Source of the DNA: an uncultured Candidatus Saccharibacteria bacterium | Lineage (GTDB): Bacteria > Patescibacteriota > JABMPQ01 > JAQVVF01 | Assembly: GCA_964574655.1 (NCBI GenBank) | Contig: CAZNOH010000001.1 | Coordinates: 201,852-265,851, forward strand | DNA: 64,000 bases | Reading direction: 5' to 3' | Shown here: positions 5,090-63,281 of the stretch, in pieces | Numbering within the stretch: position 1 is the first letter of the stretch | Layout: each line of letters opens with the position of its first letter | Made by a program: the position numbers and the translations under genes | The notes under the pieces: generated by a model | What the model saw: the letters and a program-made list of their open reading frames with translations, nothing else | What the model was told of the DNA's origin: nothing | Databases searched by the model: none

Positions 5090-5863
5090 ATGCAATTACC
5101 AAATCTAAAAATTGAATCAGAATTAATTTCAAAATATGTTTTATTGCCTGGCGATCCTGGTCGAGTTGATTTGATTGGAAAAAAATTAAAAAAGTTCAAG
5201 ATTTTTGGCCAGAATCGGGAATTTAGAATTGGCCAGGGATATTATAGAGGAATTTTAATAACAGTATGTTCAACAGGTATTGGTTGTCCTTCAACTGCTA
5301 TTGCAACTGAGGAATTAATAAAAGCGGGTGCAAAAGTTTTAATTCGTGTTGGTACATGTGGAGGAGCTTGGAAATTTGAAATAAAAGAAGGCAGTCTAAT
5401 AATTCCAACTGCTTCAATTCGAGATGAGGGGACAACTAAAGAATACATCGATCAATCTTTTCCGGCTGTTGCAAATTTTGAAGTAATTGATGCACTGATA
5501 GAATCAGCAAAAAAAAGGAAGCAAAAATATTTTGTTGGAATTAATAGAACGCATGACGCATTTTATGGAAATTTTGAATCTATAACGAAATGGGGTAAAT
5601 ATTTGTTGGATGATAAAAAGAATATTGATATGCCAATTTTATCTTCTGAGATGGAAAGTTCAGCTTTATTTGTTATTGCTTGTTTGAGAGGTGTTCGTGC
5701 TGGAGCGATATTGGCTGTAAATTCAAAACCTGAGCCACTGCTGGAAAGGCTGAAAGGCCAGAAGAAAAAAGTAATTACAGAATCAAGTTTAGATTTAACG
5801 AAAAAAACTGTTGAAAAAATGATTGATGTGGTTTTAGAGGCAATATTAATTTTAAATAAATAA
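5090..5863 (+). CDS. Nucleoside phosphorylase of the PNP/UDP family (DeoD/Udp-like)
   Basis: GDPGRVDLIG, STGIGCPS and the TCGG segment are characteristic of the PNP_UDP_1 fold. Confidence 0.65.
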   Translation: MQLPNLKIESELISKYVLLPGDPGRVDLIGKKLKKFKIFGQNREFRIGQGYYRGILITVCSTGIGCPSTAIATEELIKAGAKVLIRVGTCGGAWKFEIKEGSLIIPTASIRDEGTTKEYIDQSFPAVANFEVIDALIESAKKRKQKYFVGINRTHDAFYGNFESITKWGKYLLDDKKNIDMPILSSEMESSALFVIACLRGVRAGAILAVNSKPEPLLERLKGQKKKVITESSLDLTKKTVEKMIDVVLEAILILNK

Positions 5864-11033: not shown

Positions 11034-11130
11034 GAAAATTACTAAATTTAAGATATACTAAATTGTTAAATTGTTCAATTGTTAATTCGAAAAAATATTG
11101 TATGGTAAAAAATGATGTTAATTAAATTTT

Positions 11131-12210
11131 ATGACAAAACAAGAAAAAGAAGCATTGAAAACTTTTTTAAGTTTAATAAAAATTGATAGTGAAACAGGCA
11201 ATGAAAAATTGGTTGCTGATTTTATTATTAATTATTTAAGAAAAATTAATGTTAATGCAATCAAAGATAAATTTGGAAATGTTATTGCAAAGATAAAAGG
11301 AAAAGGTGAACCAATTATTTTGTGTGCTCATATGGATACGGTAGCGCCTGGAAAAAATATAAAGCCAATAGTTAAGAATGGCGTGATTAGGAGCGATGGC
11401 AAGACAATTTTGGGAGCTGATGACAAGGCTGGTATTGCTGGTATTCTTTTTGCAGTTAAAAATTCAAGAAATAAAAAAAATAATAAACCTTTAGAATTGA
11501 TTTTTACAGTTGAAGAAGAAATTGGCTGTGTTGGCGCAAGAAATTTGGTTTTTAATACTATTAAGTCTAAGAAGGCAATAATTGTTGACAGTTCATCACG
11601 TTGTGGTTTTATTACAATTGGCGCTCCTTTTATTCAAAGTTTTTCAGGTGAAATCATTGGTAAAATGGCGCACTCGCGCGCACCAGAGGAAGGAATAAAT
11701 GCAATTAATTGTTTTGCGGAATTTGTAAAAATGTTTAGACCAGGAAGAATCAGTAAATATTGTGTTTCAAATATTGGCTTTGTTTCTGGTGGAAGAGGCG
11801 GTAACGTGATTTGCGATCAAATAAATTTTGTCGGCGAGATTAGAGCAATAGATAATGATGTTTTCAGAAAACGAGTTATTATTCTTAAAAAAATATTAAA
11901 AAATGCTTGCAGAAAATTTGGTGCAAAGTATAAACTAAAAATGGAGGAAAGCGTTGTTGGTTATGATCATAAGAAGAATAGCGCTTTGGTTAAAATGATT
12001 TGTAATGGGATAAAAAAAACTGGTTTAAAAGTATCATACGAAAAAAGAATGGGAGCAACTGATGCTAATGTATTTTGTGAAAAAGGAATAGAGGCTTTGA
12101 GTATTGGTTATGGTCGAGAAAAATGTCATAGTGTGAAAGAAAATATCAGGGTTTCGGATCTGGTAAAAATAGCGGGAATTCTTGAAAATCTGATACGCCT
12201 ATGTCCATAG
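11131..12210 (+). CDS. M20-family metallopeptidase (ArgE/DapE/PepT-like)
   Basis: CAHMDTV and GADDKAGIAG metal-ligand motifs. Confidence 0.7.
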   Translation: MTKQEKEALKTFLSLIKIDSETGNEKLVADFIINYLRKINVNAIKDKFGNVIAKIKGKGEPIILCAHMDTVAPGKNIKPIVKNGVIRSDGKTILGADDKAGIAGILFAVKNSRNKKNNKPLELIFTVEEEIGCVGARNLVFNTIKSKKAIIVDSSSRCGFITIGAPFIQSFSGEIIGKMAHSRAPEEGINAINCFAEFVKMFRPGRISKYCVSNIGFVSGGRGGNVICDQINFVGEIRAIDNDVFRKRVIILKKILKNACRKFGAKYKLKMEESVVGYDHKKNSALVKMICNGIKKTGLKVSYEKRMGATDANVFCEKGIEALSIGYGREKCHSVKENIRVSDLVKIAGILENLIRLCP

Positions 12211-15679: not shown

Positions 15680-17041
15680 ATGCATTTTATTAAATATGTG
15701 ACGTTGCAGGAATCGGATCACATATTTATGTTAAATGAAGCAAAGCTTTCAAAGAAAGCGACATTTTTAAATCTTGGATTAGTCCCGGATCTTTTAAGTG
15801 CGTTAGAAAAACAACAATTTACAATTCCTACTCCAATTCAGGAGAAGGCTATTCCAGTTGCTATTTCCGAAAAAGATATTATTGGTATCGCTCAAACAGG
15901 TACTGGCAAGACATTGGCTTTTGGTTTGCCAATGATGCAAAGAATTGCTAAAACAAATGGACAAGGTTTGATTCTTTTGCCAACTAGAGAATTGGCAATG
16001 CAAGTTGAAGAATCATTATTAAAAATTGCTAGAACTCTTGGTCTTAAAACTGCAATATTAGTTGGTGGCGCATCAATGAGTATGCAAAGACAAAGAATTT
16101 ATAGCCATCCACATATTATTATTGGTACGCCTGGCCGTATTATTGATCATCTGCAAAGACGCAATTTGAATTTGAGCAAAGTTAATACTTTGGTTTTAGA
16201 TGAAGCTGATAGAATGTTGGACATGGGTTTTGCACCTCAAATCAAAGAAGTATTAGAAACTGTACCAACAAATAGACAAACAATGTTATTTTCTGCAACA
16301 ATGCCTGGAAGAATAGTTGCAATTGCTGCAAAGTACATGAAAAGCCCGATTAGAATTGAAGTAGCTCAATCTGGTACTGCAGCTGAAAAAGTAGAACAAG
16401 AAATGTTTGTTGTTAATCCACATCAAAAAAGATTGTTAGTATCAAAATTGTTAAAACAATACAAAGGAACTGTATTAATTTTTACTAGAACTAAATTTGG
16501 TGCAAGTAAATTATGCAGATTTTTAATTACTTCTGGATTCAGCGCTTCTGAAATTCATTCAAATAAAAGCTTTGCGCAAAGACAGGTTGCTTTGAATTTA
16601 TTCAAACAAGGAAGATCAAGAATATTGGTTGCAACTGATGTTGCATCACGCGGTATTGATGTTTCTGATATTGAATTAGTTATTAACTATGATTTGCCTG
16701 ATGATCCAGAAGATTATGTACATAGAATTGGTAGAACTGGCAGAGCTGGAAAGGGCGGAAAGGCAATTTCATTTGCTTTGCCAACCCAAAAACATAAAGT
16801 TGTGCAAGTAGAAAGACTAATTAGAAATAATATTACTATTTCTAAAACTCCAGAATTAGAACAGTCAATTCAACAAGCGACAAATTCTTTTCGTCCAACA
16901 CAAATTAAGACTCCCATTCAAGGAAGAGGCAGATCTAGTTTTCAAGGACAAGGACGCGGACAAAAGCAAGCTAGCGGACAAGGCAATAGACGTTTTCCAA
17001 AAAGAAATGGCGGACAATTTAATTATGGAACTGGTTGGTAA
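15680..17041 (+). CDS. DEAD-box ATP-dependent RNA helicase with a C-terminal RGG/GQG-rich tail
   Basis: Q-motif, AQTGTGKT, DEAD, SAT and HRIGRTGR motifs. An alternative start is at 15728 (MLNEAK). Confidence 0.85.
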   Translation: MHFIKYVTLQESDHIFMLNEAKLSKKATFLNLGLVPDLLSALEKQQFTIPTPIQEKAIPVAISEKDIIGIAQTGTGKTLAFGLPMMQRIAKTNGQGLILLPTRELAMQVEESLLKIARTLGLKTAILVGGASMSMQRQRIYSHPHIIIGTPGRIIDHLQRRNLNLSKVNTLVLDEADRMLDMGFAPQIKEVLETVPTNRQTMLFSATMPGRIVAIAAKYMKSPIRIEVAQSGTAAEKVEQEMFVVNPHQKRLLVSKLLKQYKGTVLIFTRTKFGASKLCRFLITSGFSASEIHSNKSFAQRQVALNLFKQGRSRILVATDVASRGIDVSDIELVINYDLPDDPEDYVHRIGRTGRAGKGGKAISFALPTQKHKVVQVERLIRNNITISKTPELEQSIQQATNSFRPTQIKTPIQGRGRSSFQGQGRGQKQASGQGNRRFPKRNGGQFNYGTGW

Positions 17042-17045
17042 TTTA

Positions 17046-17095
17046 GCAAGCGCTGATTTTACGCTGATTCTGAACGCTGATAAACGCTGATGATT
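17046..17095. repeat. Post-stop ACGCTGAT array (4 units)
   Basis: caaGCGCTGATtttACGCTGATtctgaACGCTGATaaACGCTGATgat. Starts 5 nt after the TAA stop. Unit spacings are 11, 13 and 10 bp. Confidence 0.7.
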
Positions 17096-17165: not shown

Positions 17166-17354
17166 ATGCCAAAAAGAAAAGGCGTATTTAGAACAAAAAT
17201 GGAACGAAAGGGCAAAAAATTGTATGCCAAGCGGGAAAGAACTGGAGAATTCAAAGACATCCAGAATATTTCCAAATGTGTGAAGGGCGAAATAAAACAG
17301 CACTCGAAGAAAAAAGTTAAGCCTGGCTATGGTTTTCGCGGTGAGACAAAATAA
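17166..17354 (+). CDS. Small, very basic hypothetical protein (62 aa)
   Basis: Lys/Arg-rich ORF in an AT-rich context. No recognisable family. Confidence 0.3.
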   Translation: MPKRKGVFRTKMERKGKKLYAKRERTGEFKDIQNISKCVKGEIKQHSKKKVKPGYGFRGETK

Positions 17355-17455
17355 ATTTTATTATTTTTTTAGATATTAGATATTCTAAAAATATAGTCTT
17401 GTTATTTGTTAAAAATCTAATAAAATATAATTATTGCTTATAACATAAAAAATAT

Positions 17456-25611: not shown

Positions 25612-25798
25612 GATTTTAGAAAAGTTAGATATAAAAAGCCCTTGTGATGAACGGGGGCTTTTTAGTTATAAAGTTCATAAAGTTTTTAAAGTTATAAAGT
25701 CGTTGACGTCATAAATTTTACGTATTTTACAAATTTAACACAGAGACACAAATAAAAAACTCACATAAGTGAGTGAAATTAAAGTGCAAATTGTTGAA

Positions 25799-28818: not shown

Positions 28819-28868
28819 TCATCGCAGAATGACGCAGAATCGTACGCAGAAAGTGCAGAATCTTTTTC
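28819..28868. repeat. Post-stop CGCAGAAT array (4 units; periods 10, 11 and 10 bp)
   Basis: atCGCAGAATgaCGCAGAATcgtaCGCAGAAAgTGCAGAATc. Starts 1 nt after the TAA stop. Confidence 0.65.
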
Positions 28869-30879: not shown

Positions 30880-31488
30880 ATGAAATTTATATTTGGTGAA
30901 AAAATTGGAATGAGCAGAATGTATAACGAAGGTAAGCTAGAAGCTGTTACCTTGGTTAAAATTGATGATTGTGTTATAACAAGGCTTTTGGATATGAAAA
31001 AAGATGGTTATTCTGCTGTTCAGGTCGGTTATTACATAGTTAAAAAAGGCGATGGCAGAGTAAAAGGCGCTTTAAATAAGGCTGGTATAAAGGAAAATCT
31101 AAGTAATTTTGCTGAATTCAGAGTTGATGACTTGACTTCATATAAAATCGGTGGTAAAATTAATATTTCACAGTTCAAAAAGGGTGATTTATTGTCTATT
31201 TCTGGGCTTTCAAAAGGCAAAGGTTTCGCAGGCGTAATGAAGCGACATGGTTTTCATGGTGCTTCACATTCACACGGCCATAAGCATGATTGGAGAGCTC
31301 CTGGTTCTATTGGTTGTGGTTTTCCTCAGCACGTTGTGAAGGGTAAAAGAATGGCAGGCAGAATGGGCGGGGATAATGTAACTTTGAAGAATTCATCAAT
31401 TTTGGATATCAGTTTAGATGAGAATGTTTTAGCTATAAAAGGGGCTTTGCCCGGAAAGATTGGTACATGGCTAAAGATTTGTGGCTAA
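30880..31488 (+). CDS. rplC: Ribosomal protein L3
   Basis: Typical L3 (GKGFAGVMKRHGF). Confidence 0.9.
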   Translation: MKFIFGEKIGMSRMYNEGKLEAVTLVKIDDCVITRLLDMKKDGYSAVQVGYYIVKKGDGRVKGALNKAGIKENLSNFAEFRVDDLTSYKIGGKINISQFKKGDLLSISGLSKGKGFAGVMKRHGFHGASHSHGHKHDWRAPGSIGCGFPQHVVKGKRMAGRMGGDNVTLKNSSILDISLDENVLAIKGALPGKIGTWLKICG

Positions 31489-31489
31489 A

Positions 31490-31545
31490 GTTCTTAAAGT
31501 TATAAAGTTGTAAAGTTATAAAGTCGAACTGCTAAATTGTTAAAT
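31490..31545. repeat. TAAAGTT (5 units, 9-bp period) followed by TAAATTGTTAA (2 units) word array
   Basis: taaagttcttaaagttataaagttgtaaagttataaagtcg..ctaaattgttaaattgtta. Confidence 0.5.
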
Positions 31546-34423: not shown

Positions 34424-34424
34424 A

Positions 34425-34492
34425 GTGAACGCTGATATGACGCTGATTTCTAACCTGCCTACCGGCAGGCAGGCGCTGATCTGATGCTGATT
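34425..34492. repeat. Post-stop ACGCTGAT array with an embedded cctgcc-tacc-ggcagg hairpin
   Basis: gaACGCTGATatgACGCTGATttctaa[cctgcctaccggcagg]caGGCGCTGATctGATGCTGAT. Confidence 0.6.
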
Positions 34493-34536
34493 AAATCGTA
34501 ATTAAATTTTTATATTTTAGTTTTTCAAGTAAACAT

Positions 34537-35175: not shown

Positions 35176-35260
35176 TCGCGAATGTGCACGAATGTGCCAC
35201 AAATTTCACTACTTGCTATTTGTGTCATTCGTGATAAATTTGTGTAAATTAGAGAATTAT
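35176..35260. repeat. ATCGCGAATG / CACGAATG / CACAAATT phased array with inverted copies (cattcgtg, aaatttgtg) downstream
   Basis: Immediately after the S3 TAA stop. Homologous to the arrays at 36617 and 38384. Confidence 0.6.
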
Positions 35261-36616: not shown

Positions 36617-36658
36617 ATCGCGAATTTACACAAATTTTTCACGAATATCGCAAATATT
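36617..36658. repeat. Post-stop ATCGCGAATT / ACACAAATT / CACGAATATCGCAAAT array
   Basis: Starts at the first nucleotide after the L14 TAA stop. Confidence 0.55.
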
Positions 36659-42002: not shown

Positions 42003-42076
42003 AACAAGCGCTGAATTAAAAATTTTTGTGACAAAATTTTTAATGCTGATTTCGAACGCTGATTTGACGCTGATAG
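42003..42076. repeat. Post-stop CGCTGAT array (AGCGCTGAAT..AATGCTGAT..AACGCTGAT..GACGCTGAT)
   Basis: Starts 3 nt after the secY TAA stop and is followed by a terminator. Confidence 0.6.
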
Positions 42077-42127
42077 AAGGTGGAAACCTTCTTTTTTCTT
42101 GACAAGATTAAAGATAAGGAGTATTTT
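42074..42127 (+). promoter_or_regulatory. Terminator (agaaggt-gga-aaccttct + T6) fused to a TTGACA promoter at 42099
   Basis: Hairpin + T-run, then TTGACA-17-TATTTT. Confidence 0.45.
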
Positions 42128-42314
42128 TTAAATTGATGATAAATATTTACAAAAATTTTAATTTAGTTCCAACTCCTACTGGTTTTTGTGGGCTAGTTTG
42201 ATTTTGTTTTAAATAATTTAAAATAAGAACAGACTGGCTCAGATAGCCAGTTTTTTGTACTTTGAGAAACAAGTCTAGTGCATAAGTTTTATGTGCTAGA
42301 CAAAGGAGGAGAAG

Positions 42315-42656
42315 ATGCGAGAAACAGCATGCAGGGTTATCAGGTCGTTGAAAGGAGATCTGTTTCTGTTTGTCGGAAAAATAAGGAAAACGGAAAGGCG
42401 TTGTCCAAAATGCGAGAAACAAGGAATGCCGGTTATTTTGCCTAATGGTAAAAAATATTGTTGTCTTTATTGCGGTTTCGAAATTGATGTTGATATTGCA
42501 AAAAAAATGTATGAGGTTTTGAGCAATTTTAATGGTGCTGATCCAAGGCAAATGAGTGAGGAAACAGCGGCGATAATCATTGCAATGGATCAAGTATTAA
42601 GCTGGTTCTTGCGTGGATATCGTTGGAACAATTATAATCCGAATGACTTGCGTTGA
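42315..42656 (+). CDS. Small zinc-ribbon protein (CPKC..CxxxC) of unknown function, inserted between secY and adk
   Basis: Strong SD caaaggaggagaag. GC is higher than in its neighbours. Four Cys sit in CxxC-like spacing. Confidence 0.45.
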   Translation: MRETACRVIRSLKGDLFLFVGKIRKTERRCPKCEKQGMPVILPNGKKYCCLYCGFEIDVDIAKKMYEVLSNFNGADPRQMSEETAAIIIAMDQVLSWFLRGYRWNNYNPNDLR

Positions 42657-42665
42657 TCTTTCAAA

Positions 42666-42689
42666 AGAAGGCTAAAGCCTTCTTTTTTC
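42666..42689 (+). terminator. Intrinsic terminator
   Basis: agaaggct-aaa-gccttct stem followed by a T6 run. Confidence 0.6.
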
Positions 42690-42741
42690 TTGTTTTAATG
42701 AGCGAAGAATGATATATTGTTAAGTATAAATTAAGTTTTTT

Positions 42742-44272: not shown

Positions 44273-44274
44273 AA

Positions 44275-44415
44275 ATCCTAAATCCTAAGCTCAAAATCCT
44301 AAACAAACTCAAATGACTAAAGTAAAAAAATACAAAATCTGATGTCGGTTTTTGAAATTTGGTTATTTTAATTTTGGATTTATTTAGGATTTAGAATTTA
44401 GTATTTAGAGTTTTT
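44275..44415. repeat. Long AT-rich imperfect palindrome built from AATCCTAA words (forward 3 units, then inverted ttaggattt / tagaattt / tagtattt)
   Basis: Spans the whole map-ruvX spacer. Confidence 0.45.
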
Positions 44416-44929: not shown

Positions 44930-46405
44930 ATGAGAAAGTTTTTAGTAACAAGTTTTTTTTGTGCTGTGTTTTTGTTTTGCTTTTGTGGAATAACGAAGGC
45001 GGCGGAATGGACGGATGTGACAGGAAATCTAACTGGAACATCTATTCATTCTATGATTCAGGCTTCTGATGGTTCTATTTACGCTGGAGGCTATGAGGGT
45101 GATGAGCATGCTAGAGTTTGGAGATATTCGGCTGGTTCTTGGGCTGATATTACTGGAATTTTATCTGGATATCGTGTTTGGTCTCTGGTTCAATCTTCTG
45201 ATAGTTCCATATATGCAGCTAGTGCTGATAAGGTTTGGAGATATTTAGCAGGTTCTTGGACAGATACTGGAACATTAAATGGTGCTTCTGTTGTTTCTCT
45301 GATTCAAGCTTCTGATGGTTCGATATATGCTGGAGGTGAAACTAATGTTGGTTCTGCTAGAGTTTTGAGATATTCAGCTGGTTCTTGGACGAATACTGGA
45401 TTGAGTGATGCTTTTTATGTTTATTCTCTGGTTCAAGCTTTTGATGGTTCGATATATGCTGGAGGTAAAACTAATGTTGGTTCTGCTAGAGTTTGGAAAT
45501 ATTCAGCTGGTTCTTGGACGAATGTTACCGGTGTTTTAGTTGGAACGAGTGTTAATTCTTTGATTCAAGCTTCTGACGGTTCGATATATGCTGGAGGTTA
45601 TAGTGCTGGTGATGGTAGAGATTATGCTAAAGTTTGGAAATATTCAGCTGGTTCTTGGACAGATTTTACTGGAACTTTATCAGGATTTGATATTGGTTCT
45701 TTTATCCAAGCTTCTGATGGATCTATATATGTTAGTTCCGATGATAAAGTTTGGAAATATTCAGCAGGTTCTTGGGTCGAGATTACTTATGGAACATTAG
45801 ACGGAAATTTGTTGAGTCCTTTGATTCAGGTTTCTGATGGTTCGATATTTGTAGGAGGTAGTAATTATTATGTTGCCAAAGTTTGGAAATATACTGTTAG
45901 TCAAGAAGAGCAAGAGCAGGAGCAAGCACAACAAAATCTAGAATCAGGTGACAAAATCATTTTAGAATCAGCCTTGAATCAGCAAACAATTTCCGGCCAA
46001 GATCTAACAATCAGCTTTACAAAGCTTCCAACCAAATTAACTAAAAACAGCGCGTATTGGATGAAATGGAATCAGCTAAGCAAGTATCCAAACAAGACAT
46101 TCTTAAAGAATTGGAAATTAAAGACTAATCTATACAAATACAAAGTCAAGAAAAGCTCTCAGAAATACAAGATCAAAGTATCATTCAAATTCACTAAGAA
46201 GCAATTAAAGAAATACTTGAAGAAAAACAAATTGGCGACAAAATCTAATATTACTTTGAAATACAAACAAGGAACATCTTCTTGGAAAAACTTTACTTCT
46301 GTCTTTACTGATGCCAAGCTAATTAAAAAGGACAAGAAATTTATTGTTAAATACTTTACGCATTATCCGGTTAAGACTCAATATTTTGCGATTGGAGTGA
46401 AATAG
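44930..46405 (+). CDS. Secreted tandem-repeat (beta-propeller-like) protein with a Lys-rich C-terminal domain
   Basis: A signal peptide, then about 9 copies of a roughly 40-aa repeat (VWKYSAGSWT[DN]xTG..SLIQASDGSIYAGG), a QEEQEQEQ linker and a basic tail. Confidence 0.5.
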   Translation: MRKFLVTSFFCAVFLFCFCGITKAAEWTDVTGNLTGTSIHSMIQASDGSIYAGGYEGDEHARVWRYSAGSWADITGILSGYRVWSLVQSSDSSIYAASADKVWRYLAGSWTDTGTLNGASVVSLIQASDGSIYAGGETNVGSARVLRYSAGSWTNTGLSDAFYVYSLVQAFDGSIYAGGKTNVGSARVWKYSAGSWTNVTGVLVGTSVNSLIQASDGSIYAGGYSAGDGRDYAKVWKYSAGSWTDFTGTLSGFDIGSFIQASDGSIYVSSDDKVWKYSAGSWVEITYGTLDGNLLSPLIQVSDGSIFVGGSNYYVAKVWKYTVSQEEQEQEQAQQNLESGDKIILESALNQQTISGQDLTISFTKLPTKLTKNSAYWMKWNQLSKYPNKTFLKNWKLKTNLYKYKVKKSSQKYKIKVSFKFTKKQLKKYLKKNKLATKSNITLKYKQGTSSWKNFTSVFTDAKLIKKDKKFIVKYFTHYPVKTQYFAIGVK

Positions 46406-46451
46406 CAAGCGCTGATTAAACGCTGATTTCCAACGCTGATTTAACGCTGAT
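46405..46451. repeat. Post-stop ACGCTGAT array (4 units; spacings 11, 13 and 11 bp)
   Basis: caaGCGCTGATtaaACGCTGATttccaACGCTGATttaACGCTGATa. Confidence 0.7.
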
Positions 46452-46481
46452 AGGGGCATAGAATTGTGCCCCTATTTTTTT
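46452..46481 (+). terminator. Intrinsic terminator
   Basis: aggggcatagaattgtgcccct stem followed by a T8 run. Confidence 0.65.
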
Positions 46482-46504
46482 TATTTAAAATTTGTTATTA
46501 TTTA

Positions 46505-46551
46505 AGCAAGCGCTGATTTAATGCAGATGCTAACGCTGATTTGGCGCTGAT
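46505..46551. repeat. Second ACGCTGAT array, tandem to the first (degenerate second unit ATGCAGAT)
   Basis: caaGCGCTGATttaATGCAGATgctaACGCTGATttgGCGCTGATa, then a T-rich run. Confidence 0.65.
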
Positions 46552-46578
46552 ATTTTTATTTTTTTATATTTTTAACGC

Positions 46579-47831: not shown

Positions 47832-47878
47832 CGAGCGCTGATTTTACGCTGATTTTTAACGCTGATTTGACGCTGATA
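47832..47878. repeat. Post-stop ACGCTGAT array (4 units; spacings 11, 13 and 11 bp)
   Basis: cgaGCGCTGATtttACGCTGATttttaACGCTGATttgACGCTGATa. Confidence 0.7.
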
Positions 47879-48692: not shown

Positions 48693-48838
48693 TGTCCAAG
48701 AAACAAGAAACAAACAAATCTCAAATTAAAATAACCAATTACCAAACTCGTCGTCGAAGGGTTTGATTATTGGTTATTGAATATTGGAATTTGTTTGTAT
48801 TTTGTATCTTGGTTATTAAATCTTATTTATAAATCATT

Positions 48839-56722: not shown

Positions 56723-57052
56723 ATGGAAATTAAACAAGAGATTAAAAAACCAGAAGCTGTTAAAATAATTGTTGAAGATAACGGTAAAATTGTTGGCAGA
56801 GCTTATTTATATTTGATTAATAATGATTTGCATAAAGAGCCTTATGGATTGTTGGAGGATGTTTTTGTTGAAGAAAATCAAAGAGGAAAAGGAACTGGTA
56901 CGAAATTAGTTCAGGCAGTAATTGATGAAGCTAAGAAAAGAGATTGTTATAAATTAATTGCAACTAGTAGGAAATCAAGAGAGCAAGTACACGAATGGTA
57001 TTTGAAATTTGGTTTTGAAGATTATGGTTGTGAATTTAGGATGGAGTTATAA
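56723..57052 (+). CDS. GNAT-family N-acetyltransferase (small, 109 aa)
   Basis: Q/RxxGxG/A motif in NQRGKGTGTKLV. Confidence 0.5.
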   Translation: MEIKQEIKKPEAVKIIVEDNGKIVGRAYLYLINNDLHKEPYGLLEDVFVEENQRGKGTGTKLVQAVIDEAKKRDCYKLIATSRKSREQVHEWYLKFGFEDYGCEFRMEL

Positions 57053-57082
57053 AGTTGTAAAGTTTTTAAAGTTATAAAGTAA

Positions 57083-61691: not shown

Positions 61692-63281
61692 ATGATATAT
61701 AAACAAGCAGTTTTAATCATTTTGGATGGATTTGGTATTGCTCCACCAAGCAAGGGAAATTGTGTTATGCAAGCAAAGATGCCATATTATAATGAGTTAC
61801 TAAAAAATTATACTCATACAACAATTCAAGCTTCTGGCGAGGAAGTTGGTTTGCCATGGAGGGATATGGGAAATTCAGAAGTTGGTCATGGCAATTTGGG
61901 AGCAGGCAGAATTTCTTATCAAAGCTTGCCATTAATAAATACAGCAATTTTAAATAAGACTTTTTTTAAAAATGAAGCTTTAATGGGTGCGATTGAGCAT
62001 GTTAAAAAAAATAAGAGTAGTTTACATCTGATGGGTTTGGTCAGCTCTGGGGGTATTCATGCGCATATTGAACACTTGTTTGCGTTATTGAAATTAGCTA
62101 AGCAGAATAAAATAAAAAAAGTATATATTCATTGTTTTATGGATGGTAGAGATATGCCAAAGGATTCAGGCATAGATATGATTACAAAAATTGAAGAAGA
62201 AACGAGCGGATGGTTTTCAGTTGGCAAAATTGCAACAATGAGCGGTAGATATTATGTAATGGATCGTGATGATAATTGGGACAGAGTTGAAAAAGCTTAT
62301 AATGCGATGGTCGGAGCGTCGGAGCGTCGGAGCGTCGGAGCGTCGGAACCAAAGTTTTTTGCGAATCCAATTACGGCAATTAAAGATTCTTATGCTCACA
62401 AAGTTTATGATGAGCAGGTGGAGCCAGTTGTGATTGGAACAAAAGAAAAACCAGTAGCTAAGATTTCTAAAGGCGATTCAATAATATTTTTTAATTATAG
62501 AACTGATCGAGCCAGGCAAATTACTGAAGCTTTTGTTAGCGATGATTTTAAAGGTTTTAAACGTGAAAAAATAGAAGATTTATTTTTTGTTTGTTTTACA
62601 GAATATAAAAAAGGATTATGCAAAAATATTGCCTTTCAGCAGAAAGAAACTCCAAATGGTTTGTCAGAAACAATTAGCAAAAATAATTTAAAACAATTTC
62701 ATGTTGCAGAGACAGAAAAGTTTGCGCATGTGACTTTCTTTTTTAATTGCGGACAAGAAGAACCTTTTGCAGGAGAAATTCACAAAGTTGTAGCCTCGCC
62801 AAAAGTAGAATCTTATGACCAGAAACCAGAAATGTCGGCGCAAGGTGTAACTGAAGAAGTAATGAAAGCAATAAAAGAAAAATATAATTTTATCTTAATT
62901 AATTTCGCTAATCCAGATATGGTCGGGCATACCGGAAATATTTCTGCAACAATAAAGGGTTTGGATTTTGTTGATTCTTGTTTAAAAAAAATTGTGACAG
63001 AAGTTTTGAATAATAATGGCGTTGTAGTTTTGACAGCTGATCATGGTAATTGCGAGGAAAAAATTAATCTGCAAACTAGTAAATCAGAGAAACAACATAC
63101 TGCAAATCCAGTGCCTTTGATTTTAATTGGCAAAGGATTGGAACGAAAATCTGATAATACTGATTTGAGCTTGGAATCACCGACTGGAGCTTTAGCTGAT
63201 GTGGCGCCAACAATTTTAGCATTAATGGGAATTGAAAAACCGGTAGAGATGATAGGAATTGATTTAACTAAAGCGATATAA
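61692..63281 (+). CDS. gpmI: 2,3-bisphosphoglycerate-independent phosphoglycerate mutase (iPGM) carrying an internal GASERRSV repeat insertion
   Basis: iPGM motifs (LILDGFG, MGNSEVGH, ADHGN) and the full 529-aa length. Confidence 0.9.
   Translation: MIYKQAVLIILDGFGIAPPSKGNCVMQAKMPYYNELLKNYTHTTIQASGEEVGLPWRDMGNSEVGHGNLGAGRISYQSLPLINTAILNKTFFKNEALMGAIEHVKKNKSSLHLMGLVSSGGIHAHIEHLFALLKLAKQNKIKKVYIHCFMDGRDMPKDSGIDMITKIEEETSGWFSVGKIATMSGRYYVMDRDDNWDRVEKAYNAMVGASERRSVGASEPKFFANPITAIKDSYAHKVYDEQVEPVVIGTKEKPVAKISKGDSIIFFNYRTDRARQITEAFVSDDFKGFKREKIEDLFFVCFTEYKKGLCKNIAFQQKETPNGLSETISKNNLKQFHVAETEKFAHVTFFFNCGQEEPFAGEIHKVVASPKVESYDQKPEMSAQGVTEEVMKAIKEKYNFILINFANPDMVGHTGNISATIKGLDFVDSCLKKIVTEVLNNNGVVVLTADHGNCEEKINLQTSKSEKQHTANPVPLILIGKGLERKSDNTDLSLESPTGALADVAPTILALMGIEKPVEMIGIDLTKAI
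62311..62347 (+). repeat. Coding microsatellite: GC-rich 8-mer (tcggagcg) repeated 4.6 times
   Basis: tcggagcg x4 + tcgga, read directly from the sequence. It encodes GASERRSVGASERRSVGASE. Confidence 0.85.

Follow-up and report, generated by a model that had tools for sequence, protein, structure and literature searches.

The closest described parallel to the repeats analysed here is offered by the REPtrons, in which repetitive extragenic palindromic (REP) sequences and their inverted doublets (REPINs) accompany a RAYT gene, and in which REP singlets are regarded as REPIN remnants (PMC3116915, PMC3337134). A second parallel is the left end of IS1535, an IS607-family element, where four direct 9-bp motifs, helically phased over ~40 bp, nucleate the cooperative binding of transposase dimers (PMC6188088). 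We analysed a 64-kb stretch of a Candidatus Saccharibacteria contig (hereafter the window) in which one array of four short direct repeats recurs at six loci. These six arrays are almost certainly homologous to the inverted terminal arms of small cassettes found in other genomes, each of which encodes a GxxExxY nuclease (PF13366/TIGR04256); and the reading that we favour overall is that they are orphan single arms of such a cassette, which would be a selfish element.

The cassette is like a REP/REPIN-RAYT system in that a small nuclease-type gene is flanked by inverted cognate repeats; that intergenic inverted doublets and singlets also occur, our arm-arm form corresponding to the REPIN and our solo arm to the REP; that copies lie near gene ends; and that repeat sequence varies by protein subfamily. 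It differs in that the protein is a PD-(D/E)XK hydrolase rather than an HUH Y1 transposase, the repeat a non-folding array of 3-5 phased direct 7-8-mers rather than a GTAG-tagged hairpin, and the gene multi-copy and inside operons; the hosts are Patescibacteria, Bacteroidota, the Planctomycetes-Verrucomicrobia-Chlamydiae (PVC) group and Chloroflexota, by comparison with mainly Proteobacteria for REPs.

All 14 copies of the unit ACGCTGAT in the window lie on the + strand, where 0.93 were expected, and none of 100 shuffled windows reached this number. When one mismatch was allowed, extra matches within the clusters completed six arrays, each of four (R)CGCTGAT units. Unit spacing is 11/13/11 in arrays without an inserted hairpin, with 11/13/10 at 17050; three arrays are uninterrupted (17050-17091, 11/13/10; 46409-46451 and 47835-47877, both 11/13/11), in the array at 46510-46551 the second unit is degenerate (ATGCAGAT), and those at 34429-34491 and 42008-42074 each carry a small palindromic insertion between units. 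A 5' flank of TAR-(0-2 nt)-CAAG is common to all six and the spacers are alike, with TTCTAA in the centre; to judge from their sequence, the arrays are copies of one 47-nt element and not independent local repeats. The upstream genes encode a DEAD-box helicase, L22 (rplV), SecY, a propeller protein and Sm_multidrug_ex. An earlier interpretation made from the letters of the window (the sequence-only reading) had proposed a real repeated element of ~47 bp at six loci and had named these genes, correctly on both counts; it had also placed all six copies directly after stop codons, which holds for five, whose first unit begins 2-9 nt past the stop. The array at 46510 has no stop codon directly upstream, and follows a terminator (46449-46476) and then an extended -10-like sequence (46493-46501). 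Because it is preceded by this terminator and by a -10-like sequence that is kept in two relatives, it is probably the 5' end of the next mRNA, that is the 5' untranslated region (UTR) of a GT2 gene. The arrays and the features directly associated with them are as follows, loci from other genomes being given here and below as L with a number.

17044..17091, + strand: solo array 1, TAGCAA followed by GCGCTGAT and three copies of ACGCTGAT (units 17050-17091); DEAD-box helicase stop codon at 17039-17041.
34424..34491, + strand: array 2, in the spacer between rplV (stop 34421-23) and rpsC, with units at 34429, 34440, 34473 and 34484.
34454-34473: GC hairpin splitting array 2 between units 2 and 3.
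42003..42074, + strand: array 3, after secY (stop 42000-02), with unit 1 (GCGCTGAA) at 42008-15 and the others at 42043, 42056 and 42067.
42015-42044: AT hairpin splitting array 3 between units 1 and 2.
42075..42098, + strand: secY intrinsic terminator (hairpin 42075-42092), directly 3' of array 3 and conserved in L122, L126 and L129.
46403..46451, + strand: array 4, TAGCAAG followed by four units at 11/13/11, the TAG being the propeller gene stop codon.
46449..46484, + strand: intrinsic terminator 3' of array 4 (hairpin 46449-46476), fold z -3.1, with a compensatory stem change relative to L122.
46493..46501, + strand: putative extended -10-like sequence TGTTATTAT upstream of array 5 (TGTTATAAT in L122 and L124).
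46505..46551, + strand: array 5, TAAGCAAG followed by GCGCTGAT, ATGCAGAT, ACGCTGAT and GCGCTGAT; probably 5' UTR of the GT2 gene.
47832..47877, + strand: array 6, after Sm_multidrug_ex (stop 47829-31), with units 47835-47877 at 11/13/11.

Membership of the window arrays was assessed with a profile (R1) built from only eight gene-linked left arms, none of them of the window lineage. Its top six matches in the window were the six arrays, all on the + strand with E values from 8.3e-11 to 3.1e-4, and the next matches had E values of at least 0.09. Array 6 (8.3e-11) and array 4 (1.2e-10) scored best, followed by array 1 (17051-17091, 1.5e-7) and array 5 (5.8e-6), and the two split arrays were matched at 42044-42075 (7e-5) and at 34430-34449 (3e-4), the latter also at 34474-34493. 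Four of the matches span positions 4-46 of the model and take one extra base in the central spacer, the window arrays being spaced 11/13/11 and the gene-linked arms 11/12/11. In 93 non-redundant arrays the fourth unit is near-invariant, though no search pattern required it, and conservation extends to a C preceding unit 1 and a TA preceding unit 3.

The gene linked to these arms emerged from the clustering of open reading frames (ORFs) within 3 kb of arrays with variable spacers (909 ORFs at 119 loci), in which PF13366/TIGR04256, at 11 loci in four phyla, was the only family recurring near arrays across phyla. The array-linked proteins are of 127-145 aa (the member at L077 is an over-extended ORF call of 334 aa), match PF13366 PDDEXK_3 (E 1.9e-25) and the TIGR04256 'GxxExxY protein' (E down to 8e-43), and retain the D...ExK catalytic motif. 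A complete cassette is ~480-500 bp long and consists of a forward array, a nuclease gene from ATG to stop (130-145 aa) and an inverted array. The forward arm has four CGC-N-GAT units at 11/12-13/11 and ends 0-6 nt before the ATG, or up to ~40 nt in two array-selected loci; the inverted arm begins at, or overlaps, the nuclease stop codon, so that some C-termini read ...NQR, encoded by AAT CAG CGT. Complete cassettes occupy short intergenic spacers of the host and run in the direction of the flanking genes, their left arm lying 0-20 nt after the upstream stop; they are without room for a promoter of their own and co-oriented with host operons. The post-stop position is a trait of the whole cassette family, fitting short stop-to-start spacers, and among the three functions suggested by the sequence-only reading a small repeat that parasitises stop codons came closest to this outcome.

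Given that loci selected by their arrays are biased, two gene tests independent of the arrays were run. Loci of the candidate phyla radiation (CPR) found by protein homology alone had both four-unit CGCTGAT arms in 5/5 distinct cases (L409, L416, L419, L420 and L423), and for L409, L416 and L419 none of 200 control windows matched on a 5-mer statistic. Annotated GxxExxY genes on replicons of cultured isolates had both arms in three of four cases: in Bacteroides finegoldii between radA and the gene of an FAD-dependent protein (units CACAGAGG, inverted CCTCTGTG), in Bernardetia after ade (units CACAGAGA, inverted TCTCTGTG), and in Sphingomonas parapaucimobilis between fabD and fabG (units ACGCGAAG, inverted CTTCGCG), where a gene wedged between these two is evidence of insertion. 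The Prevotella gene has the left array only. Two genes upstream of the cassette in L420, a 188-aa ORF (731-1297) with a weak match to 23S_rRNA_IVP, the four-helix-bundle 'intervening sequence protein', sits between two giant Laminin_G_3 genes; it may represent another small selfish gene family using these sites.

CGCTGAT units accompany a CPR nuclease clade of at least 63% identity; more distant paralogues of the nuclease are flanked by units of ATAC-N-AAT (L403), TGC-N-AAT (L336), ACGAAAT (the second gene of L082) or CGCGAAT (L008), and ATGAACC units go with a nuclease on the viral contig L407. Across these comparisons the unit sequence follows the nuclease subfamily, and 'concerted' differences in units between arrays are therefore accounted for. 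Each unit has the form 3+N+3, and its free central base does not covary between arms (CGCTGAT versus ATCTGCG in L030), which argues for read-out by a protein and not for hairpin pairing.

These features suggest how such a cassette might work. Each 7-8-bp unit, in which a free central base is flanked on each side by three bases that are read, would be one site for the cassette's own nuclease, an assignment to which we give something just short of an even chance; an oligomer would bind the four sites on one helical face, and the two arms would mark the cassette ends. Free-standing homing endonuclease genes of the PD-(D/E)XK type, such as that of I-Ssp6803I, are comparable in that the cassette too has a minimal nuclease ORF at the exact centre of a palindrome that is also found uninterrupted, as arm-arm forms with 0-5 nt between the innermost units, and in that the gene, once inserted, would interrupt and thereby immunise its own target. 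They are unlike it in that the cassette's targets would be multi-copy intergenic repeats with no intron or intein, and its cleavage activity is predicted only. Two routes of spread can be envisaged: the gene may home into arm-arm palindromes, or breaks triggered by the nuclease may be repaired by copying from another locus. For the homing route, the tight centres of the arm-arm forms favour a precise relationship. Spread would generate, or decay into, gene-less arm-arm palindromes and single arms; solo arms would then result from decay, much as REP singlets derive from REPINs (PMC3337134), and the co-orientation of promoterless cassettes with host operons may bias what remains. The window arms would be passengers in transcribed spacers (3' UTR, intercistronic and 5' UTR), tolerated because they are unfolded, non-terminating and outside coding sequences.

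Several observations weigh against this interpretation. No GxxExxY gene was found in the 64-kb window (tblastn, E<1e-3; best hidden Markov model match, E 0.83) or in 100 kb of close relatives, and the six copies have no inverted partner arm in the form of an ATCAGCG array on the + strand, the window holding a related arm-arm element at 35177-35254. Among ~70 arrays at low-GC loci we counted 8 arm-gene-arm forms (480-500 bp), 18 arm-arm forms and ~43 solo arms, making solo arms the commonest state in a tally that is biased in its class frequencies, most loci having come from a CGCTGAT search. Copies in the window lineage are all forward and co-oriented with genes (6/6 in the window; 3/3 in L339, where the genes are on the other strand), and solo arms overall are co-oriented in 18 cases and anti-oriented in 4, a lean that is unpredicted by simple decay and could point to a role of solo arms at the transcript level. 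CGC-W-GAT units are common to CPR and Bacteroidota nucleases that are only ~30% identical, so that specificity is not strictly phylogenetic. By the criteria for miniature inverted-repeat transposable elements, the arm-arm forms have terminal inverted repeats and a target-site duplication was not identified. Binding or cleavage of the units by the GxxExxY nuclease is a prediction, and a 130-aa hydrolytic nuclease alone cannot carry out strand transfer.

In a different explanation, four ACGCUGAU units in unstructured RNA would be bound by a protein or by a complementary RNA and would modulate mRNA stability, processing or translation from 3' UTRs, intercistronic spacers and 5' UTRs, the nuclease gene merely borrowing the signal. 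Array RNA folds no better than shuffled sequence (z +1.2 to -0.4); the strong folds are separate terminators and inserted hairpins, and the recurrent fold is limited to a weak AGCG/CGCU pairing of unit 1 with unit 4. Such RNA would be accessible, the lineage copies are all on the sense strand of transcribed spacers, arrays lie between stop codon and terminator, and the 18-to-4 lean of solo arrays elsewhere is in the same direction. The array is, however, regularly found in inverted orientation, both as a right arm and within arm-arm palindromes, lies antisense to genes in Saccharibacteria and Verrucomicrobia, and appears or vanishes between near-identical strains with the flanking genes unchanged. 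In the window itself nearly all genes are on the + strand, so the direction of transcription is inseparable there from that of replication; Rfam covariance models gave no match at gathering score in the window, and only tRNAs in 20 array-bearing loci. We consider an RNA-level element unlikely. The arrays were also considered as intrinsic terminators and rejected as such, in agreement with the sequence-only reading: the array RNA is unstructured, separate hairpin terminators directly follow two arrays (42075-42092 and 46449-46476), and one copy is internal to the S10 operon, in the rplV-rpsC spacer, where it cannot act as a terminator.

SecY assigns the window to Patescibacteria (CPR), its named matches coming from Patescibacteria, Parcubacteria and Moranbacteria. 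Comparison of the same operon region in relatives, ranked by SecY identity (L122 and L126, 95%; L124, 94%; L129, 88%; L128, 83%; L125, 74%), bears on whether the arrays serve the host. The array after the propeller gene is kept in L122 (15431-15473), with 3 of ~12 spacer bases changed relative to the window copy at 46405 against 1/32 unit bases, and the terminator stem after array 4 shows a compensatory change between the two. The rplV array has a three-unit orthologue in L124 and none in L122 or L126; array 5 has an orthologue in L124 at 17339-17381. Downstream of Sm_multidrug_ex, L122 has a spacer of only 3 nt, whereas that of the window (99 nt) contains a CGCTGAT array and that of L124 (118 nt) a ACGCGGAA array, and the site after secY holds, across strains, four-unit arrays of differing units (CGCTGAT, CACGAAT or TCTCTAAT). 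L125 (43% GC) has no arrays in 16 kb, its spacers being 5-70 nt. Strains with 94-95% identical SecY thus differ in the presence and the unit type of arrays at orthologous sites, and the arrays are therefore dispensable and turn over fast, with units changing in concert.

This turnover is hard to reconcile with a host chromosomal binding array for replication, segregation or regulation, whether of iterons or cooperative response-regulator sites, as had been proposed from the sequence, or of nucleoid-protein sites. Four 8-mers about one helical turn apart, with units more conserved than spacers, do have the appearance of such an array. Bacillus subtilis PhoP boxes, four hexamers with an 11-bp period, bind cooperative oligomers, and so do plasmid iterons and OmpR/PhoB boxes, whose direct repeats recur every 10-11 bp. 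The IS1535 ends with their four phased 9-mers show that arrays of this kind can be bound cooperatively (PMC6188088). The phasing claim survives as a one-face, multi-site protein-binding architecture for the six arrays; it does not extend to the genome in general, where TAAAGTT arrays are spaced 8/9/8. There is, by contrast with iterons and OmpR/PhoB boxes, no rep gene, origin or regulated promoter linked to the arrays, which are mobile, polymorphic and associated with gene ends, not with promoter -35 positions, and one of which lies inside the S10 operon. Replication iterons were rejected since their units are usually of 17-22 bp beside rep or an origin, here replaced by 8-bp units dispersed at six gene ends. 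Strains can lose or exchange the arrays, none is present in 16 kb of the relative whose SecY is 74% identical, several unit families occur within one 650-kb genome, and in other genomes an equivalent four-unit array is the terminal inverted repeat of a mobile GxxExxY nuclease cassette. We regard a host binding array as very improbable; a binding array and not a terminator was the right form and the wrong kind.

Other insertions were observed in the same spacers. The AT hairpin within array 3 (42015-42044, stem TTAAAAATTTT) has a counterpart at the corresponding position of L124 that differs in its loop, and L128 has hairpins resembling it; GC hairpins of the CCTGCC...GGCAGG type, as at 34454-34473, recur in L128 and L030. 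The palindromes between array units may be separate mini-insertions. In L124 a nucleotidyltransferase/HEPN pair, a toxin-antitoxin-like module (11360-12161), is inserted directly after the post-secY array and begins at the 5' half of the secY terminator stem (GAAGGTGGA). The secY-adk spacer (42099-42741 region) is 739 nt in the window and 78-130 nt in relatives; it contains a promoter-like TTGACA-17-TATTTT, a 113-aa Zn-ribbon ORF (42315-42656) with a weak Cas12f1-like TNB match (E 3e-4) and, at 42663-42686, a repeat of the secY-type terminator, and looks like an inserted gene cassette bounded by duplicated terminators.

Mycobacterial interspersed repetitive units (MIRUs) are intergenic short direct repeats comparable to the TAACTGA class of heptamers. 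The latter repeats have been described in the intergenic DNA of Beggiatoaceae, Cyanobacteria and Bacteroidetes (PMC4679880). Our arrays are like both in lying in spacers inside operons, ribosomal-protein operons included, in abutting starts and stops, in their patchy phylogeny and in having no known function; they are unlike the TAACTGA repeats, which are contiguous, of fixed period and in 2-43 copies, in having four units, variable spacers and an associated gene. The TAACTGA repeats are a published, looser analogue for the view that the arrays are a mutational by-product, neutral filler without a cognate factor that arose in AT-rich spacers through slippage or through stepwise tandem duplication from one unit to two and then four. 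On such a view one would understand why the window holds 23 arrays of three to five units built from other, often unrelated units (1.15 in shuffles), why spacing is of an A-B-A form (11/13/11, 8/9/8, 10/14/10) and central bases alternate A,T,A,T in L030, both resembling a duplicated two-unit block, and why units at one site differ among strains. It fails to account for the match to a profile from unrelated contigs, for the conservation of a fourth unit and of the TA that precedes unit 3, and for the fixed association with one gene family; one 47-nt consensus, TTCTAA spacer included, at six loci and in other genomes goes beyond local slippage, and the comparison of the 46405 array with L122 shows change concentrated in the spacers. 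A by-product is in our judgement quite improbable.

Further candidates were tried and rejected. The arrays are not the ends of a larger transposon, the genes between convergent arrays being ordinary (pilus genes, a sulfatase and a short-chain dehydrogenase in L005 and L082), and arm pairs 676-722 bp apart enclose the host genes rpsG, apt and that of the pyruvate:ferredoxin oxidoreductase gamma subunit. The 47-bp array matches the geometry of IS607-family ends, a resemblance in architecture only: no serine-recombinase TnpA or TnpB was found near arrays by ORF clustering and Pfam scans, and IS607 ends are not mutually inverted and finish in GG, unlike the cassette arms, which are true inverted repeats around a 130-aa nuclease. 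Chi, FtsK-orienting polar sequences (KOPS), DNA-uptake sequences, DnaA boxes, boxA and box C/D K-turns were set aside since the motif is confined to arrays in spacers.

The arrays are not confined to this contig; such confinement would have told against the sequence-only reading. A pattern scan (one genome per species; three CGCTGAT units with 3-6 nt gaps) gave, among the matches listed, 75/120 loci of the variable-spacer class, alongside plain tandem repeats. Verrucomicrobiota and Planctomycetota have AAC-CGCTGAT x3 with a 10-11 bp period, Bacteroidota four units at 10/13/10 and several Patescibacteria four units at 11/12/11; variable-spacer arrays were also found in Chloroflexota and Acidobacteriota, many arrays elsewhere have an inverted array downstream, and a Lutibacter metagenome-assembled genome (MAG; L030) has ~145-bp palindromic units in tandem repetition. 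When metagenomes were scanned for the 2x2 architecture, a matching four-unit array was found on dozens of low-GC contigs. Raw pattern counts were discarded as a test of motif specificity, since scrambled units in viral contigs, an imperfect control, gave similar totals (53 versus 77 and 27), nearly all of them perfect 12-nt tandem (coding) repeats; what alone differed was the variable-spacer share, 75/120 in genomes and 8/53 in those viral contigs.

In the Patescibacteria MAG UML_A.mb.15 (L016, L044, L066 and L098) the four-unit array lies inside a ~170-bp repeat with terminal inverted repeats of its own (TAATTAGTTnnnGTGTAAAAAT), which sits at TAA stops and recurs at contig ends, the latter suggesting that it breaks the assembly. 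In L339, a window-like contig (GC 0.28; positions 5290-5329 and 5745-5761), a three-unit array is in frame within a 700-aa ORF (...NADTNADRTP...) and another ORF runs into an array, where the TGA in the second unit ends it. Arrays can therefore turn into coding sequence or provide stop codons.

One survey gives the function of PF13366 as 'unknown' and records multiple horizontal transfers for it (PMC3424549). We found no literature linking GxxExxY genes to flanking repeats, full-text matches to GxxExxY, PDDEXK_3, PF13366 and TIGR04256 being incidental in the literature that can be searched, beyond which a description may exist; ACGCTGAT, CGCTGAT and ATCAGCG likewise returned nothing relevant. 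The GxxExxY cassette with phased-repeat arms is widespread and, it appears, undescribed. We put at about even the broader proposal that GxxExxY nucleases and their arms form a phylum-spanning selfish system, REPIN/RAYT-like or of an intragenomic-homing kind, in Patescibacteria, Bacteroidota, PVC, Chloroflexota and some Proteobacteria, with subfamily-specific 3+N+3 units and decay products that make up a large share of CPR intergenic DNA. If true, this would assign a role to a very large family (at least 8000 matches to PF13366/TIGR04256), provide a second and mechanistically different example of the REPIN/RAYT style in phyla without known REPs, and explain the dense, strain-variable intergenic repeats of ultra-small CPR genomes, those of the S10 and spc operons included. 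The repeats also break assemblies: most nuclease homologues are on 1-2 kb contigs and the secY contig L121 ends ~50 nt beyond its array. The nuclease-unit pairs could furthermore amount to a naturally occurring collection of small DNA binders and cutters that look programmable and have simple 3+N+3 sites.

Three arrays in the window are built of related unit families.

28823..28860, + strand: CGCAGAA x4, ~11/13/11, with TA before unit 3.
35177..35254, no strand assigned: arm-arm element between rpsC and rplP, a forward CGCGAAT/CACGAAT/CACAAAT array followed by an inverted array.
36619..36656, + strand: CGCGAAT/CACAAAT/CACGAAT/CGCAAAT array after rplN.

Further spacer arrays of 3-5 units lie at 25669-25700, 31486-31524 and 57050-57080, and also at 11061, 28406, 31538, 51439, 56681, 49678, 39392 and 28319. 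Their families include TAAAGTT x4-5 (8/9/8), AATTGTT/TTAACAA, GATATT x4, AATAACTAA and GTAAAAAGT; the first TAA of a TAAAGTT array often doubles as the stop codon of the preceding gene, and these arrays are at differing sites in L122 and L124. The map-ruvX (44273-44415) and TIM-FBA (48693-48838) spacers are long AT-rich imperfect hairpins with G.U pairs, whose arms are built of short repeated units (AAATCCTA/TAGGATTT and CAAGAAAC/GTATCTTG); this architecture is kept in each related strain with differing units. Lastly, a perfect tandem repeat of period 8, (GTCGGAGC)x5, lies at 62310-62347 within a 529-aa ORF (61692-63281).

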